A stretch of DNA of 64,000 bases from Chlamydiia bacterium. Its GTDB lineage: Bacteria > Chlamydiota > Chlamydiia > Chlamydiales > GCA-2402025. A program made the position numbers and the translations under genes. Below the pieces are notes generated by a model, which did not search any database, was not told the origin of the DNA, and saw nothing but the letters and a program-made list of their open reading frames with translations. Numbering within the stretch: the first letter of the stretch is position 1; every line of letters starts with the position of its first letter. This document shows, piece by piece, positions 425-13,571 of the stretch. Location: positions 545,226 through 609,225 of the forward strand of contig JAUICV010000002.1 of assembly GCA_030427725.1 (NCBI GenBank), given 5' to 3'.

Positions 425-829
425 TTAAGAAACTTCAGTAATTTTAACACCGATAGTGTCACCTATTTGCACAAGCTGACCTTTAGCCACAGGCTTTCCA
501 GAAACAGTCAGTTTAACGAAAGCTTCTTTATTCGGAGAAATTTCTAAAGTATTTCCAGGTTTTAACTTGAGCAAATGTTTTAAAGGCATTTTCAGCCTCG
601 TTGCTTCGACAATAATATCTAAAGGGATGTCAGATGCTTTATTAAGCGTTTCAGATTCATCTTCATCATCTTCAAAATCTAAATCGTCTTCTCCAGATTC
701 ATCTTCTAGATCTTCATCGTCGTCTAATTCTTCATCATCGTCTAATTCTTCATCATCGTCTAATTCTTCATCCTCAAAATCGAAATCTTCATCTTCTTCG
801 AAGTGATCATCATCAGAGTGTTTATCCAT
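425..829 (-). CDS. T3SS cytoplasmic sorting-platform protein, C-terminal SpoA/FliN-like module (SctQ-C) with poly-acidic N-terminal half
   Basis: The ORF track gives 425..865. The tail LKMPLKHLLKLKPGNTLEISPNKEAFVKLTVSGKPVAKGQLVQIGDTIGVKITEV is a FliN/SpoA-type signature. Start placed at ATG 829..827, which has an AGAGGA about 9 nt upstream and overlaps the upstream stop as ATGGATAA. Confidence 0.75.
   Translation of the reverse strand: MDKHSDDDHFEEDEDFDFEDEELDDDEELDDDEELDDDEDLEDESGEDDLDFEDDEDESETLNKASDIPLDIIVEATRLKMPLKHLLKLKPGNTLEISPNKEAFVKLTVSGKPVAKGQLVQIGDTIGVKITEVS
720..773. repeat. Three tandem copies of an 18-nt unit (tcgtctaattcttcatca), coding for DDDEEL-type acidic repeats on the minus strand
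   Basis: Direct reading: units at 720..737 and 738..755 are identical, and 756..773 differs at its last base. In-frame within the SctQ-C gene. Confidence 0.9.
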
Positions 830-1688
830 AATTGGGTTCCTCTTCATAAAGGGCATAGTCAACAATGGTAAGCTGACTATTTTTTTTGTGTGTAATGAGT
901 AAATTGCGTCCTTCTAAACTTATTTGCATGCTACCAGACTCTTTTTCTGGATTAAATGTGCAATTATCTAAGATTAGCAAATCACCAACTTTTAATGAGG
1001 AAAGCTCATTAGATGTTAAAGAGACGTGACCGCACGTAACACTTAAAGAAACATCGGGGTTGATGTCTTTAACAGAATTTAAAGAAGCTGGTTTTGATTC
1101 AAAATGCGCTGAGATAACTTTTTGAAAAGTCGAAGGAAAAATTGCGCGCACTGTGATTGCTTTGCTCGGTAAACCTAATTTGACATCTACGCAGTAAGAA
1201 TCTTCTGAGACAAGTGGTTCGCTTGTCATTTTAACACTTAAATCCTCAAAAGGTTTTAATTCGTTGAGCTCTGATAAAATTTTAAGAGTTAAAAATCTAA
1301 AGAAACCTTGGCGGTAGCTTGGATCATCGAACGTTTTTTTCTCTTCGGCAGTGTCTAAAAGAGGTGATGTTAAAGATTCGATATCATCATCTGCAACAAC
1401 AAGAAAAAAAACAGGATTTAAGGGAGAGAGAGTACAACTAATGATTGTCGGATCTTCACCGAAACCTTTTAGAAAATCACCAAACTGCTTCCAGTCACTT
1501 TTTAAATGTGTGATTGTTAACTCATTTTTTTCTAATGTTTTTTGAACGCTTTTTTCTAAAGATTTCCATGGAAAAGTTGGGGTTTGCCCCCACATGGGGA
1601 TCTGCCCTCGCTCTTTCAGAGCTTCCGTCAGCGTTTCTAAAAAAATGTCCGAACTTTGGGTCATGATCTTGTGTCCTCTTTTGATCAA
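822..1688 (-). CDS. sctQ: T3SS sorting-platform protein SctQ/CdsQ, N-terminal gene of a split pair
   Basis: 288 aa. The C-terminal block VSLTSNELSSLKVGDLLILDNCTF...SMQISLEGRNLLITHK is SpoA-like. It lies downstream of sctN-sctO-sctP, as CT672 does. Confidence 0.7.
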   Translation of the reverse strand: MIKRGHKIMTQSSDIFLETLTEALKERGQIPMWGQTPTFPWKSLEKSVQKTLEKNELTITHLKSDWKQFGDFLKGFGEDPTIISCTLSPLNPVFFLVVADDDIESLTSPLLDTAEEKKTFDDPSYRQGFFRFLTLKILSELNELKPFEDLSVKMTSEPLVSEDSYCVDVKLGLPSKAITVRAIFPSTFQKVISAHFESKPASLNSVKDINPDVSLSVTCGHVSLTSNELSSLKVGDLLILDNCTFNPEKESGSMQISLEGRNLLITHKKNSQLTIVDYALYEEEPNYG

Positions 1689-9941: not shown

Positions 9942-9977
9942 AAAAAAACCTTCTCCAGCTTATGGAGAAGGTTTTTT
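9942..9977 (-). terminator. Hairpin terminator, bidirectional in appearance, downstream of the trx operon
   Basis: CCTTCTCC (9949..9956) / GGAGAAGG (9964..9971), flanked by an A-run upstream and a T-run downstream. Confidence 0.6.
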
Positions 9978-10004: not shown

Positions 10005-10745
10005 CTAATTCCCAAAGTATTTAACGAGCAAATCATTAAGCTTATCTTTTGTTGTGAAACCAACTTGCCTTCCAACTTCCTTGCCATCTTTAAAAAAAAG
10101 AAGAGTGGGGAGTCCTCTAGCATTTAACTTGCCTAGCAGGGCTCTATTTGTGTCTGCGTTTAATTTTGCAAAAGTGTGATCAGATTCTTTTGAAAGTTCG
10201 TTCAAGATAGGGGATAAAGCTTTACATGGCCCGCACCAGTCGGCGTAAATATCTACGATAACTGTGTCCTTTTCTGAAATGAGATTCTCAAAATTGTCTG
10301 AAGATAAGCTTATGACTTTTGAATCTTTTGAGGGTTGAAAATTTTCTGAAACTTTAGGGTGATCTATCTGCAAAGCTTTGACCACCAAATTTTGCATTAT
10401 CTCAGATGCTTCCAAAGAAAAGTTTGCTGAGGTTTTGGTAAGTTTTTTGTATGTCTCACTTGTAACTAAATCGTAAATATTATCTATATCTTCATGGGAA
10501 AAATGCTTGAAAAAAGCTTGTTTCAATGTGTCTTGAAGATCTTTTTGATGATAGAGTTGACTTAGCTTTTCCATGAATTCTTCAGCAGTAACTTTAGATC
10601 CTGTAGCCTGAATCATTTGTTTTGCAACCGCATCATAGTTCTTTATTTGCAAAAGGCTTTCTATAATAACTTCGGTTTTATCAATATCTTTTGGATAAGC
10701 TAAGCTAGCTTGTCCTAGAAGTAATGCACAAATAATAGCTTTCAT
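10005..10745 (-). CDS. Thioredoxin-domain protein with N-terminal signal peptide
   Basis: 246 aa. Leader MKAIICALLLGQASLAYP. The C-terminal domain has WCGPC and LPTLLFFKDGKEV thioredoxin-fold motifs, preceded by a roughly 140-aa helical domain. Confidence 0.85.
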   Translation of the reverse strand: MKAIICALLLGQASLAYPKDIDKTEVIIESLLQIKNYDAVAKQMIQATGSKVTAEEFMEKLSQLYHQKDLQDTLKQAFFKHFSHEDIDNIYDLVTSETYKKLTKTSANFSLEASEIMQNLVVKALQIDHPKVSENFQPSKDSKVISLSSDNFENLISEKDTVIVDIYADWCGPCKALSPILNELSKESDHTFAKLNADTNRALLGKLNARGLPTLLFFKDGKEVGRQVGFTTKDKLNDLLVKYFGN

Positions 10746-10748
10746 AAA

Positions 10749-11717
10749 TTAGTTTCCTTTTTTGAGTTCCAAATATTGATAGGCATCTAACGCAGCTTTG
10801 CAGCCTGAGCCTGATGCTGTAATGGCTTGTTTATAGCGATTGTCAACGACATCACCAGCTGCAAAAACTCCTTGAGGGGCTTTGATAATGATGCCAGAAG
10901 AATTGGTTGTGACAGAGCCTTGAAGCCAAGAAGTGTTTGGAATTTGACCAATAGCAATAAAGACCCCATCACAGGAGATCTTTTCTAGCTTACCTGATTG
11001 GGTGTTTTCCAAAGTAGCTCCGTCAACATAGCCTTTAAGTGGATCTGAGATGTTGATAACTTTAGTAAAGGTCTTGATGGAGATGTTTTTCTTAGATGCT
11101 ACGCGCTCACGTAAAATATTAGATGCTCTAAATGTGTCACTTCTATGAACGATTGTGACCTTTTTTGCGAATTGAGACAGCAAAAGAGCCTCTTCAAAAG
11201 CGCTATCTCCACCTCCTACAACTAAAACGTTTTGATCTTTGTAAAGCGGGGCGTCACAAACAGCGCACGTGCTGACGCCTTGCCCAAAAAGAGATGCTTC
11301 AGAGTCAAGTCCTAAAAGTTTAGGAGAAGATCCCGTTGCAATGATTAAACTCTTTGTTTCGAGGATTTCATTGTTTGAAAGAGTTGCTCTATAAGGATAT
11401 GTGGAAAAATCCATACTTTTAACATCAAGGCTCTGGACCTTCGCTAAATATTTAATAGCTTGCTCTCTCATATTAGATATTAAAACAGGCCCATTGATTC
11501 CATTGGGGAATCCTGGAAAATTTTCAACCACATGTGTAGTAGAGAGCTGACCTCCAGCAACAGTTCCTTCTGCAACGAAGGTTTTTAAACCTAACCTAGA
11601 CGTGTAGATACTGGCAGTTAATCCTGCAGGGCCTCCCCCTGCAATTAAGACATCGTATGTGTCAGAAAATAGAGATAAGAAGGGAAGGTATAAACAAAGT
11701 ACAAATAGTAGTCTCAT
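10749..11717 (-). CDS. trxB: Thioredoxin-disulfide reductase (TrxB) with an unusual hydrophobic N-terminal leader
   Basis: 322 aa. FAD motif DVLIAGGGPAGLTAS, redox-active CAVCD, NADPH motif VVGGGDSAFEEA...HRSDTFRA. The first 18 residues, MRLLFVLCLYLPFLSLFS, are signal-peptide-like. Confidence 0.9.
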   Translation of the reverse strand: MRLLFVLCLYLPFLSLFSDTYDVLIAGGGPAGLTASIYTSRLGLKTFVAEGTVAGGQLSTTHVVENFPGFPNGINGPVLISNMREQAIKYLAKVQSLDVKSMDFSTYPYRATLSNNEILETKSLIIATGSSPKLLGLDSEASLFGQGVSTCAVCDAPLYKDQNVLVVGGGDSAFEEALLLSQFAKKVTIVHRSDTFRASNILRERVASKKNISIKTFTKVINISDPLKGYVDGATLENTQSGKLEKISCDGVFIAIGQIPNTSWLQGSVTTNSSGIIIKAPQGVFAAGDVVDNRYKQAITASGSGCKAALDAYQYLELKKGN

Positions 11718-11825
11718 AGGTAAAAACTATGCTTAAGCAGAGATTTAAAGTCCATATGAAAGGGGCCCTGAAATATATCAGCTAACAATGGTAAATAGAG
11801 GGTAGAATGAGAGTTAGAACATATA

Positions 11826-11855
11826 AAGAGTTTGGGAGTTAGCTCCCAAACTCTT
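11826..11855 (-). terminator. Hairpin terminator after the 11867..13444 gene
   Basis: 13-bp stem AAGAGTTTGGGAG / CTCCCAAACTCTT with a 4-nt loop. T-rich after the stem on the minus strand. Confidence 0.6.
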
Positions 11856-11866
11856 TTATGAAAACA

Positions 11867-13444
11867 TTAAGGAATGATTGTTTGTAGGGCGTTAGCACAT
11901 TCATTAAGATCACCAGAGGGTGATAGTGTACTATAAAGATCAATCCCATATTTTTGTTCATCTGGATAATAGGTTAAGGTTTTTACGATATATATAGTTT
12001 GGTCAGGCGTGGGACTAGGCATTGCAAAGCATTTACCTTGCATTAACTTTGATTTGTTTTTGTAAGTTATAGCAGGGACCTGTTTAATGAGAGTGTAAAT
12101 GTCGCTGATTTGAGTAAATGGAAGAGTAGATCTGGTAGGAACTTGAAAGGACATTTGTGATGTTCTACCATTTGAAATTGGGTAGTGTCCAATTGCAATT
12201 GCAAGACCGGACGATTCATCGTTAAATTGGGTTCTGAAAAATCCTCCTCCAATTGCAATTGCTTTATCGAAAACATTAGTGGATTCATCAAGCGCTGTGA
12301 TATTTACATTCGAAACTAAGGGTTTTGATAGGGGGTATAGAGATTTTTCCAGTTCAAAAGAATCTCTTGACACACTAGTAAAGAAAGATTTAGCTCTAGG
12401 AACTAAATCAGGTGTGTCATCATAAACAGTAACTGCTTGATACGCTCTCGAGGCTTTGCCTAATAGCGTTCTACAATTTTTGTATGTCGCAACTTTTGTC
12501 CAAGAGCCAACAATGTCTTGACGTTTTCTGAAGACCCAGGCCTCTTTAGAGGGAAGTAAAATGCTTACTTGGTCGGACCTGCTGGAGCTAGCTAAGCTAA
12601 GCTTTAATTGTTTTTGGTTGATATTAGCAAATGTTCCAAGAGAGATGTTTGTTATGCTATTGGACGCATTTTCTCTGATATTTAAACTTAATGTATTGTC
12701 TTGTTGGCTAAGGTAGCAAGAGACTCTTCTGCCTCCCCTTGGAGCTGCAGCGACAGCGACAGCAAGAGCTTGTCCTGTGACTGGTTTTTTTATCGAAGTC
12801 ATCGTTCCATTGCTATAGTGAAACTCTACAATATTTTTTTTGTTGTCACCAATAAAAGCAGCGATGGTATCTTGAGCTAAAGAAGCTCCTGCTGCAACTG
12901 TTTGGTCTGGATCGTCATATTCTGGTGGAGATGAGCTATCTAAGAGAGCTCTAGCGAAAGACCTTCTACTAAGTGTTTGTCCAGAAAGGGTCATCTCATA
13001 AGCATCAACTGAAGAGGAACCTCTCGTAAAAAGCCAAGTTCTTCGTCTTAAATTTTGCTGAACAGCATTGGAATCTGGAAACGTATTGAACTCATTTGTT
13101 GTGACAACAGCTGCATCAAAGATGTCTGGGATGACAAGTCCTCTATTTCTTGCTTCTTCCACTAATTCTAGTTGCTTGTTTAATGAATAGCGTGACAGTA
13201 AAAGATCCCAAGATTCTTCGCGTTTAACAATAGCAGAAGATAGAAGCTCATTGTTCGCTAAAACCTTTGGTTTTCCAGCTTCCATGATTGTTGCAAAGCT
13301 TTGAAAAGGGATAAAAGGACTTTCATCTGAGACGTCATTAGATATTTGAGTCAGGATTTTTTGCTGGCGATTTTCAGAAAAAAGAGAGCTCTTTGCAAGA
13401 ATAAAACAAAGGCTTAAACAAAAAATGTTTTTGAAATTCATGTA
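11867..13444 (-). CDS. Secreted hypothetical protein (lineage-specific family, intact copy)
   Basis: The ORF track gives 11867..13495. The internal Met at 13444 gives the signal peptide MNFKNIFCLSLCFILAKSSLFS. I recognise no known motifs. It is a paralog of the decayed gene at 13572..15085. Confidence 0.7.
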   Translation of the reverse strand, partial: YMNFKNIFCLSLCFILAKSSLFSENRQQKILTQISNDVSDESPFIPFQSFATIMEAGKPKVLANNELLSSAIVKREESWDLLLSRYSLNKQLELVEEARNRGLVIPDIFDAAVVTTNEFNTFPDSNAVQQNLRRRTWLFTRGSSSVDAYEMTLSGQTLSRRSFARALLDSSSPPEYDDPDQTVAAGASLAQDTIAAFIGDNKKNIVEFHYSNGTMTSIKKPVTGQALAVAVAAAPRGGRRVSCYLSQQDNTLSLNIRENASNSITNISLGTFANINQKQLKLSLASSSRSDQVSILLPSKEAWVFRKRQDIVGSWTKVATYKNCRTLLGKASRAYQAVTVYDDTPDLVPRAKSFFTSVSRDSFELEKSLYPLSKPLVSNVNITALDESTNVFDKAIAIGGGFFRTQFNDESSGLAIAIGHYPISNGRTSQMSFQVPTRSTLPFTQISDIYTLIKQVPAITYKNKSKLMQGKCFAMPSPTPDQTIYIVKTLTYYPDEQKYGIDLYSTLSPSGDLNECANALQTIIP

Positions 13445-13571
13445 AACAGATCCCCTGTAAAAATTATGAGATAGTTCATAAATACATCCTGACAAAGATT
13501 TGTGACAAATATTTTTTTTACGAGAGAACTTAGAAGGGGATAAATCCCCTTCTAGGTTGAGTTGACATGGT

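Follow-up and report, generated by a model that had tools for sequence, protein, structure and literature searches.

A thioredoxin reductase-thioredoxin gene pair with signal-peptide-type leaders: a candidate extracytoplasmic thioredoxin system in a Chlamydiia bacterium

The stretch of DNA analysed here, referred to below as the window, comprises 64,000 nucleotides from a Chlamydiia bacterium (Chlamydiota; Chlamydiales; GCA-2402025) and corresponds to positions 545,226 to 609,225 of contig JAUICV010000002.1 in assembly GCA_030427725.1. Two adjacent genes on its minus strand encode a thioredoxin reductase (TrxR), hereafter the reductase, and a thioredoxin (Trx), hereafter the partner. A first-pass annotation of this DNA described the reductase motifs behind a leader and, 3 nt downstream, a WCGPC thioredoxin with a leader of its own, a description that is borne out by translation of both genes. 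The arguments presented below make it quite probable that this reductase-thioredoxin pair is exported.

Results

A two-gene unit in which both products carry leaders

The features of the locus are collected in Table 1. As translated, the reductase begins with MRLLFVLCLYLPFLSLFS, followed by DTYDVLIAGGGPAG, and the partner begins with MKAIICALLLGQASLA, followed by YP. The first-pass annotation had stated that no alternative start lies between the reductase leader and the Rossmann fold, and reading of the codons confirms this; read in frame, the stretch from codon 2 to the Rossmann glycines is free of ATG, GTG and TTG, and the sole near-cognate codon is an ATT at codon 25, inside the first beta strand (beta-1). 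An in-frame TAG is located four codons upstream of the reductase ATG. The ATG at 11715-11717 is therefore the sole workable start and the leader cannot be skipped.

Table 1. Features of the trxR-trx locus, in window coordinates
Feature	Positions	Strand	Remarks
Terminator-like hairpin of the upstream gene (11867..13495)	11825..11856	-	14-bp stem from scan; 5' limit of the trxR-trx unit
5' intergenic region, presumed promoter of the pair	11718..11824	-	Upstream sequence read directly
Leader-bearing TrxR paralog of low relative molecular mass, 322 aa including leader	10749..11717	-	Motifs, Pfam, TIGR01292 and structure matches
Reductase leader MRLLFVLCLYLPFLSLFS	11664..11717	-	n-region MR, h-region with Pro12, c-region ending LFS; predicted signal peptidase I site between Ser18 and Asp19
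Spacer from TrxR stop to partner ATG, 3 nt	10746..10748	-	Junction AAAGGAAACTAATTTATG
Partner thioredoxin gene, 246 aa	10005..10745	-	
Partner leader MKAIICALLLGQASLA	10698..10745	-	Predicted cleavage between Ala16 and Tyr17 (S-L-A)
All-helical N-terminal domain of partner, residues 23-124	10374..10679	-	AlphaFold2 helices, pLDDT 80-90
Thioredoxin domain of partner, residues 144-244	10014..10316	-	WCGPC 10224-10238; GLPT cis-Pro loop 10104-10115
Intrinsic-terminator-like hairpin and T-run ending the two-gene unit	9943..9977	-	15-bp stem from scan

Bracketed by terminator-like hairpins, the two genes look like a self-contained operon, and their 3-nt spacing suggests translational coupling; an AGGA-like box for the partner lies inside the 3' end of the reductase gene. 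In the 107-nt region upstream of the reductase a promoter scan did not detect a sigma-70-like site, and reading of the sequence did not reveal a clear Shine-Dalgarno box. The GC content of the pair (0.35-0.42) is that of its surroundings and provides no signal of horizontal transfer.

The reductase has the fold and the catalytic motifs of a thioredoxin reductase

All of the motifs that the first-pass annotation had called cytoplasmic in type are present in the reductase, with one nuance, namely that the 2'-phosphate motif is HRSxxxR and not HRRxxxR. The flavin adenine dinucleotide (FAD) motif GGGPAG is found at nt 11622-11639 (residues 27-32), the redox motif CAVCD at 11253-11267 (residues 151-155, in the pyridine-nucleotide domain), GGGDSA at 11199-11216 and HRSDTFR at 11127-11147. 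Across the alignment of the reductase clade the mean column identity is 71% and the catalytic motifs are invariant, including CAVCD and, in the FAD motif, both glycines, the Ala and the Gly. The protein matches Pyr_redox_2 of Pfam at 2.5e-42, and a phmmer search of the Protein Data Bank (PDB) retrieved the TrxR 5uth at 1.3e-75, with solved TrxRs aligning from residue 17-23 onward. An AlphaFold2 model of the reductase (predicted local distance difference test, pLDDT, 84) was matched by Foldseek to 5uth with an E-value of 5e-34 and a template-modeling score of 0.77-0.81, and the best 50 matches are all TrxRs. By this model and these matches, the two-Rossmann-domain fold of the low-molecular-mass TrxRs is present. 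In the model the leader forms a separate helix at residues 2-14 (pLDDT 62-70), and beta-1 follows at residues 20-26.

HRRxxxR is found in all 24 canonical chlamydial TrxBs and in 23 of 25 outside TrxRs, the other two being one with NRT and one in which the motif was not captured. The corresponding motif of the window clade is HR[S/T/N]xxF[R/K], of which HRSDTFR in the reductase is an instance, so that two of the three basic residues are retained. This change from HRR to HR[S/T/N] could alter the preference for the phosphorylated over the unphosphorylated form of reduced nicotinamide adenine dinucleotide (NADPH versus NADH; NAD(P)H for either). Conservation of the pyridine-nucleotide site argues that NAD(P)H is truly a substrate.

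The pair is additional to a canonical TrxB and TrxA

The genome to which the window belongs is 1.75 Mb in 6 contigs and is 93% complete. A search for a second, leaderless trxB, which the first-pass annotation had proposed as a check, located one on another contig. Its product is 44% identical to the reductase, aligns from query residue 19, begins with MEDQNVIIIGSGPAA and carries HRRDELR. A leaderless thioredoxin of about 100 aa (TrxA) is also encoded. Since a leaderless TrxB and TrxA are present in the same genome, the window pair is an extra system and not the housekeeping one, and by sequence comparison the reductase is a divergent paralog, the housekeeping ortholog being the TrxB on the other contig.

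A maximum-likelihood tree of TrxRs was built without the leader columns. The canonical chlamydial TrxBs form one clade (support 99), and the window reductase falls in a clade (support 100) in which all members possess leaders. On this tree the leader label requires 2 changes, compared with a mean of 28 when the labels are shuffled. Because the tree groups the leader-bearing lineages with only two changes of label, the leader is, on phylogenetic grounds, an old and selected feature of distinct paralog lineages.

The leaders are short, conserved in shape and probably of the Sec type

All 18 TrxR homologs at 55-65% identity to the reductase, and about 17 more at 45-49% identity, possess leaders with the n-region, h-region and c-region (n-h-c) organization of signal peptides. 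Each opens with Lys/Arg in the n-region, continues with a hydrophobic core and usually shows L-x-A, then E, directly before the conserved YDV(L/V)I(V)GGG. Similarly, 6 of 6 close homologs of the partner start with MKK, a hydrophobic stretch and a small residue. The presence of a leader is thus maintained among orthologs while its sequence drifts. Lower in the ranking are leaderless TrxRs, which start 5-12 residues before the glycine motif, at about query residue 20. A profile scan of genome contigs with the clade alignment was filled by generic TrxRs sharing GGGDSAFEE and gave no chlamydial loci; these outside relatives are leaderless. As a measure of background, about 14.5% of crude open reading frames (ORFs) in the genome pass a loose leader filter, and the unanimity of the leaders is therefore not due to chance.

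Fifty leaders were measured, covering all of the chlamydial groups. Of these, 47 have an n-region with a net charge of +1 to +3 and the other three an n-region with a net charge of 0. The longest uncharged run of each leader measures 6-18 residues, with a median of 14, and never reaches 20; the median distance from the Met to beta-1 is 21 residues, and Asp or Glu occurs within a few residues after most leaders, often immediately. In the reductase the leader contains 16 uncharged residues, including Pro12, and ends 2-3 residues before beta-1, so that no linker is left. Both window proteins and the 50 related leaders have the n-region and h-region expected of a Sec/signal peptidase I signal peptide. 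The partner site, S-L-A before Y, is a standard cleavage site, and most orthologs have L-x-A before E. A lipoprotein reading of the reductase leader was considered and ruled out, since FVLC followed by L is not a lipobox. Both leaders are short and, as we infer, of the Sec/signal peptidase I type, and the reductase leader would be cleaved.

Even if it were not, the arrangement of charges, positive on the N-terminal side and acidic on the C-terminal side, predicts an N-in/C-out orientation, which would place the enzyme outside the membrane. This consideration bears on the two options that the first-pass annotation had left open, an unusual exported redox pair and an uncleaved anchor on the cytoplasmic face. 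A single-span anchor that is N-in and yet leaves the catalytic domain in the cytoplasm is topologically self-contradictory; only an N-out/C-in orientation keeps the enzyme in the cytoplasm. The conserved leaders, the separate canonical pair and the distinct clades favor the exported pair, and the short hydrophobic run and the charge pattern make a cytoplasmic-face anchor unlikely.

The partner is a thioredoxin with an additional helical domain

The thioredoxin domain of the partner matches Thioredoxin of Pfam (7.4e-25) and TIGR01068 (99 bits, over the cutoff of 96.8), and Foldseek matched the partner to thioredoxins with an E-value of 1e-11 and a root-mean-square deviation of about 1.1 Å. Its active-site stretch, VDIYADWCGPCK ... 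GLPTLLFF, contains the WCGPC motif, the buried Asp and the cis-Pro loop. The partner exceeds the single-domain thioredoxin format of about 105 aa by the leader, a helical domain and a linker. In the AlphaFold2 model the leader (residues 1-20, pLDDT below 50) is followed by the helical domain (23-124), a disordered linker (126-141) and the thioredoxin fold (145-244).

The helical domain has no significant match in Pfam and belongs to no established family there. A faint, sub-threshold signal for DUF2059, a helical domain of periplasmic proteins, was obtained (2 of 8 members in Pfam, best E-value 0.008; 2x3o and 3oao at the top of the PDB search with an E-value of 0.14). A fold search with the whole partner was dominated by the thioredoxin domain and returned nothing on the helical domain. 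The homolog P0122 (377 aa) carries this domain as a tandem duplication, and partners in other clades consist of a bare leader and thioredoxin of 118-142 aa, from which it is missing. Judged from this duplication and absence, the helical domain is an optional add-on.

Distribution across the Chlamydiota

We surveyed 300 genomes sampled across the Chlamydiota, with families labeled f1 to f31; a gene not found in a metagenome-assembled genome is not thereby proved absent. Close orthologs of the window pair were confined to f30 and f15 and are scattered among their genomes. Unfused pairs at a greater distance, again with leaders on both the TrxR and the Trx, are present in f30, f17, f18, f8 and f10. 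In the two nearest clades the downstream gene encodes a leader-bearing thioredoxin of the WCGPC type at every examined locus with a readable downstream ORF. A second TrxR was detected in 39 of 47 genomes of f7, 50 of 62 of f10 and 5 of 11 of f30, as against 0 of 29 in f4, which is Chlamydiaceae-like and DsbD-positive. All of the second copies examined in f7 and f10 are either leader-bearing TrxR-Trx fusions of 470-530 aa or leader-bearing pairs; a dedicated scan of f10 found the fusion in 49 of 61 genomes, with leaders on 24 of 24 parsed copies. As a whole, every sampled second TrxR copy carries a leader, and among the sampled leader-bearing copies reductase and thioredoxin are always paired or fused.

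This distribution may be compared with that of two other envelope components, the membrane domain of the DsbD/CcdA/ScsB family (DsbD_TM) and the outer membrane protein OmcB, for which the counts are given in Table 2.

Table 2. Genomes with DsbD_TM and OmcB, by family
Family	DsbD_TM	OmcB (Chlam_OMP6)
f3	18/18	16/18
f4	29/29	28/29
f6	32/32	23/32
f11	5/5	5/5
f13	6/6	4/6
f17	5/5	5/5
f18	5/5	0/5
f1	0/2	0/2
f7	0/47	0/47
f8	0/2	0/2
f9	0/26	0/26
f15	0/7	0/7
f30	0/11	0/11
f10	10/62 (weak matches)	0/62

The two markers follow nearly the same division among the families and are missing jointly from the remainder, f18 being the case of DsbD without OmcB. It has been reported that ScsB is present in all Chlamydia strains tested (PMC3322552) and that OmcA and OmcB are missing in Simkania and Rhabdochlamydia (PMC6490308). 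Leader-bearing TrxR systems that contain the CxxC cluster in those lineages that have neither DsbD nor OmcB. Because of this concentration, we read these systems as a source of envelope reducing power that is independent of DsbD, and not as a reductase of an OmcB shell. The first-pass annotation had invoked the disulfide cross-linking of chlamydial envelopes as a rationale for such a reductase. That rationale fits poorly and is unsupported for this lineage, since OmcB was not found in the window's genome or in the families in which the leader-bearing TrxR is common. A reducing route independent of DsbD, perhaps fed by host NADPH, appears to fit better.

Leader-bearing TrxR-like flavoproteins that are devoid of the redox CxxC were also encountered, at loci L130 (G127), L136 (G201), L138 (G116) and L020 (G206). 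In one example GISASATFDG occupies the position at which others have GVSTCAVCDA. These proteins come from the DsbD-positive families f6, f3 and f31.

In the window the pair lies next to type III secretion genes, cdsD and a gene for a CesT-like chaperone. A functional link to these neighbors was considered and ruled out, since orthologous pairs reside in unrelated neighborhoods, next to a polyketide synthase, ABC transporters or Ddl. Because the neighborhoods differ between loci, the pair appears to be a mobile or independently retained two-gene module, and its siting near cdsD incidental. The orphan ORF upstream of the pair (11867-13495, minus strand) has no Pfam match; its leader ends in SSLFS followed by EN, a c-region that is the same as the LSLFS before D of the reductase. 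At one locus (L015, G230:C8) an MsrB-like ORF (789-1298, plus strand; containing YHVLRECGTEAPWSGRF) is the immediate upstream neighbor of a TrxR and a Trx that both carry leaders. Its product is a possible client, at this one locus.

Export route, cofactors and other envelope redox genes

The reductase leader contains a single Arg and no RR, and thus lacks the S/T-R-R-x-F-L-K motif of the pathway for twin-arginine translocation (Tat). TatC (PF00902) was not found in the 93%-complete genome by a search in which the positive controls matched. With neither a twin-arginine motif nor TatC, export would therefore be of the Sec type, with the protein unfolded, and FAD would consequently have to be acquired outside the cytoplasm. 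ApbE enzymes use FAD as a substrate in the periplasm, and since this genome has a gene for one such flavin transferase, with a leader of the lipoprotein type, FAD by implication finds its way there. Four nucleotide transporters of the NTT type are also encoded, evidence that nucleotides of the host pass the outer layers, and host NADPH that enters the periplasm by the same route would be the most plausible source of electrons.

Neither DsbD_TM nor OmcB was found in this genome. DsbB is encoded (PF02600, 40 bits, C1:832860-833402) with its cysteine pairs present. The sole DsbA-like ORF (Thioredoxin_4, 41.5 bits, C1:104427-104927, minus strand) has SYQN in place of the CxxC. In the sister genus G114, MsrA and MsrB form a fused ORF (G114:C23); neither of the two was found in the window's 93%-complete genome.

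Two further proteins of this genome deserve mention. One resembles flavin monooxygenases (FMO-like; 509 aa, C1:834889-836418, plus strand; PF00743, 186 bits), is of the FAD/NADPH type and possesses the leader MRYIINILILLCFNIGTSEF; its gene is located about 1.5 kb from that of DsbB. The other is a 377-aa protein (C1:118523-119656, minus strand) with the leader MKSIFVVLLLTISIETQA, followed by IT and then by a GAGPSG Rossmann motif, and with weak similarity to Pyr_redox_2. Since these two proteins carry leaders similar to that of the reductase, the latter is no one-off, and exported flavoenzymes of a "cytoplasmic" type are probably not unique to the reductase in this organism.

Comparison with known thioredoxin and disulfide-reducing systems

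In its two components and in its fold the window pair matches the cytoplasmic TrxB/TrxA system (1TDE/2TRX of E. coli), with which it also shares the FAD GxGxxG motif, the CAxC redox center, GGGDSA and the WCGPC with its cis-Pro loop. It differs from that system in possessing Sec-type leaders, in being a second copy, in the HRS motif and in the helical domain of about 100 residues on the partner. In the fold comparison the solved structures closest to the reductase are 5uth of M. smegmatis and 4a5l of E. histolytica, with 39-43% identity to solved TrxRs. The mature parts are an intact low-molecular-mass TrxR and a classical WCGPC thioredoxin. We regard the pair as a thioredoxin system that has probably been relocated.

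With DsbD/CcdA/ScsB the pair shares a proposed task, the delivery of NADPH-derived reducing equivalents to extracytoplasmic proteins with the thioredoxin fold. The two are not homologous, and whereas DsbD moves electrons across the membrane from cytoplasmic Trx, the whole chain from NADPH to thioredoxin would in our case be located outside. NTRC of plastids and cyanobacteria (7p9d/7p9e), which is among the top structural matches to the reductase, likewise ties a low-molecular-mass TrxR to a single thioredoxin module. It is fused, however, and its compartment generates NADPH itself, whereas in the window a stop codon and 3 nt divide the two modules into two ORFs, each with a predicted signal peptide. 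The chlamydial relatives in f7 and f10, true fusions of about 470-530 aa, are like NTRC in being fused but have predicted bacterial signal peptides.

The best functional analogy is provided by yeast Trx1/Trr1, a pair that functions in the intermembrane space of mitochondria and draws on NADPH of cytosolic origin (PMC5601281). That compartment is oxidizing and periplasm-like and its NADPH is made elsewhere. Unlike the window pair, Trx1 and Trr1 are eukaryotic and dually localized cytosolic proteins, with no dedicated paralogs and no cleavable leader.

A profile search for relatives of the reductase covered 1.8 billion representative proteins. It retrieved many TrxR-Trx fusions of about 485 aa with an N-terminal hydrophobic segment, which a second search attributed to Candidatus Dependentiae/Babeliales by way of source names such as "bifunctional thioredoxin reductase/thioredoxin"; this family (proteins P0217 and P0309-P0426) comprises more than 100 clusters. 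An expansion of TrxR has been noted for Babela (PMC4378268). Like the Chlamydiota, the Dependentiae are intracellular and protist-associated and join TrxR and Trx to an N-terminal hydrophobic segment. Their segments differ from the chlamydial leaders in being of anchor length (median 19 uncharged residues, with at least 18 in 83 of 116) and in being followed by a linker of about 30 residues. The thioredoxin site is CPSC instead of CGPC, the proteins are fused, and among the best profile matches the family lies outside the leader-bearing chlamydial clades. We suggest that it represents a parallel and architecturally different solution. The second-best profile match, P0158, an ankyrin/PH protein of 1427 aa, was dropped as a candidate eukaryotic relative, its score being due to two TrxR domains with 36-38% identity. 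Full-text searches of the literature brought to light no relevant account of a thioredoxin reductase that bacteria export, secrete or keep in the periplasm.

Discussion

The explanation that we favor is an extracytoplasmic thioredoxin system that operates beside the cytoplasmic TrxB/TrxA. Both pre-proteins would cross the inner membrane unfolded via Sec and the leaders would be cut at the sites predicted in Table 1. The reductase would then fold outside the cytoplasm, take up FAD there and draw electrons from NAD(P)H, most plausibly host NADPH that has reached the periplasm. Electrons would pass from FAD to the CAVC and on to the WCGPC of the partner, which would reduce or isomerize disulfides, or repair oxidized cysteines, in envelope or secreted proteins, and so replace the missing DsbD route. 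For this mechanism as a whole, including its role as a reducing route, we judge the balance to be slightly favorable.

Several considerations weigh against this explanation. We know of no source of NAD(P)H in any bacterial periplasm, and it is unusual for non-covalent FAD to be taken up after Sec export. As for clients, AhpC of this genome has no leader, MsrA and MsrB were not found there, and no exported protein is an obvious candidate. The score of the reductase against TIGR01292, the model for thioredoxin-disulfide reductase, is 319.6 bits, under the curated cutoff of 343.45, and HRS replaces the canonical HRR. At the predicted cleavage site, L-F-S before D, the Leu at -3 is tolerated and the residue at -1 is Ser, which does not make a classical AxA. 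The leaders were called by rules of n-h-c shape together with conservation. The phylogenetic pattern has its own exceptions. In family f9, where DsbD is missing, a less stringent threshold still yields no TrxR other than the canonical TrxB, and some DsbD-positive genomes of f17 and f18 also hold the exported pair. The sister genus G114 lacks the pair, although its contig ends in the neighboring cdsD region, so that an assembly gap is possible. Further, the families are related, the tallies are not independent and the DsbD/OmcB pattern may reflect few evolutionary events. Finally, Tat is the usual route of periplasmic FAD enzymes, and those described in PMC12224317 use it.

The lack of a periplasmic client in this genome, together with the question of cofactors, might be accommodated if type II secretion or vesicles took the two proteins past the periplasm and into the vacuole lumen or the host cytosol. 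There they would act as an effector on host NADPH and FAD, reducing host or vacuolar proteins or countering host oxidants. Both proteins do carry Sec-type leaders of one kind, the host cytosol would solve the problem of NADPH and FAD, the helical domain of the partner could serve as a targeting or client-binding module, and chlamydial proteins with Sec leaders, for example cHtrA, reportedly reach the host. Nevertheless, we consider this unlikely; beyond the Sec leader there is no recognizable secretion signal, no conserved neighborhood ties the pair to a secretion system, and the strong tendency of such systems to occur where DsbD is missing points to envelope housekeeping. A different idea is that the pair is exported but runs in the oxidative direction. 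The exported thioredoxin, reoxidized by DsbB, would be a disulfide donor that substitutes for DsbA, or the flavoenzyme would behave as a sulfhydryl oxidase that passes electrons from thiols to O2 or another acceptor. A periplasmic oxidant does seem to be missing, in that DsbB is present and the only DsbA-like ORF has lost its CxxC, and thioredoxin exported to the E. coli periplasm can be oxidized by DsbB and can replace DsbA. This possibility is nonetheless improbable. GGGDSA and HR[S/T/N]xxF[R/K], for which an oxidase has no need, are conserved across the clade, WCGPC is the most reducing active-site type of the thioredoxin family, and the constant association of reductase and thioredoxin, adjacent or fused, is what would be expected if electrons flow from TrxR to Trx.

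We give about as little weight to the proposal that the leaders are uncleaved anchors, which would tether the pair on the periplasmic face or, with an N-out/C-in orientation, on the cytoplasmic face, where cytoplasmic NADPH is at hand. The cytoplasmic type of the cofactor requirements is in keeping with this proposal, as are the reductase cleavage site, which is no textbook AxA, and the real anchor-length segments of the Dependentiae family with their linkers. In contrast, the uncharged run of the reductase is 16 residues long, contains a Pro and leads into beta-1 without a linker, and in all 50 chlamydial leaders the run stays below 20. The charge pattern places the C-terminal domain outside, the partner and many orthologs have ordinary cleavage sites, and it is hard to see what a copy on the cytoplasmic face would add to the canonical TrxB/TrxA. 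It might also be supposed that the leader is without meaning, the result of an erroneous start site, of a decaying duplicate or of a chance hydrophobic N-terminus. The score of the TrxR just under the NCBIfam equivalog cutoff and the failure to recognize a promoter or Shine-Dalgarno box upstream could be cited in support. We regard this as very improbable in view of the lack of an alternative start codon, the intact ORFs, the invariant catalytic residues within a clade that is itself well conserved, and the retention of leaders in dozens of orthologs and on both partners, with a label that clusters on the tree.

Returning to the extracytoplasmic system, its implications may be considered at the level of the phylum. 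The textbook view is that the periplasm contains no NAD(P)H and that reducing power is carried across the membrane by proteins of the DsbD family. A Sec-exported TrxR of the NAD(P)H type with its own exported thioredoxin would contradict this view, and such pairs are conserved in more than 100 chlamydial genomes, concentrated where DsbD is missing. One may speculate that obligate intracellular bacteria of the Chlamydiota, and perhaps of the Dependentiae as well, maintain beyond the cytoplasmic membrane a thioredoxin system that is complete and NAD(P)H-dependent, runs on host NADPH and in many lineages has replaced the DsbD/ScsB importer. We advance this generalization tentatively and consider it on the whole doubtful. 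If true, it would amount to "redox parasitism", in parallel with the ATP parasitism that is carried out by NTT transporters. Should the exported system itself be real, these intracellular bacteria would have pyridine nucleotides and FAD at hand in their envelope, with the host as the simplest source, and flavoproteins could be assembled after Sec export, without Tat. The system would also be a candidate for controlling the redox state of proteins of the envelope and the secretion apparatus in the many chlamydiae that possess neither OmcB nor ScsB.

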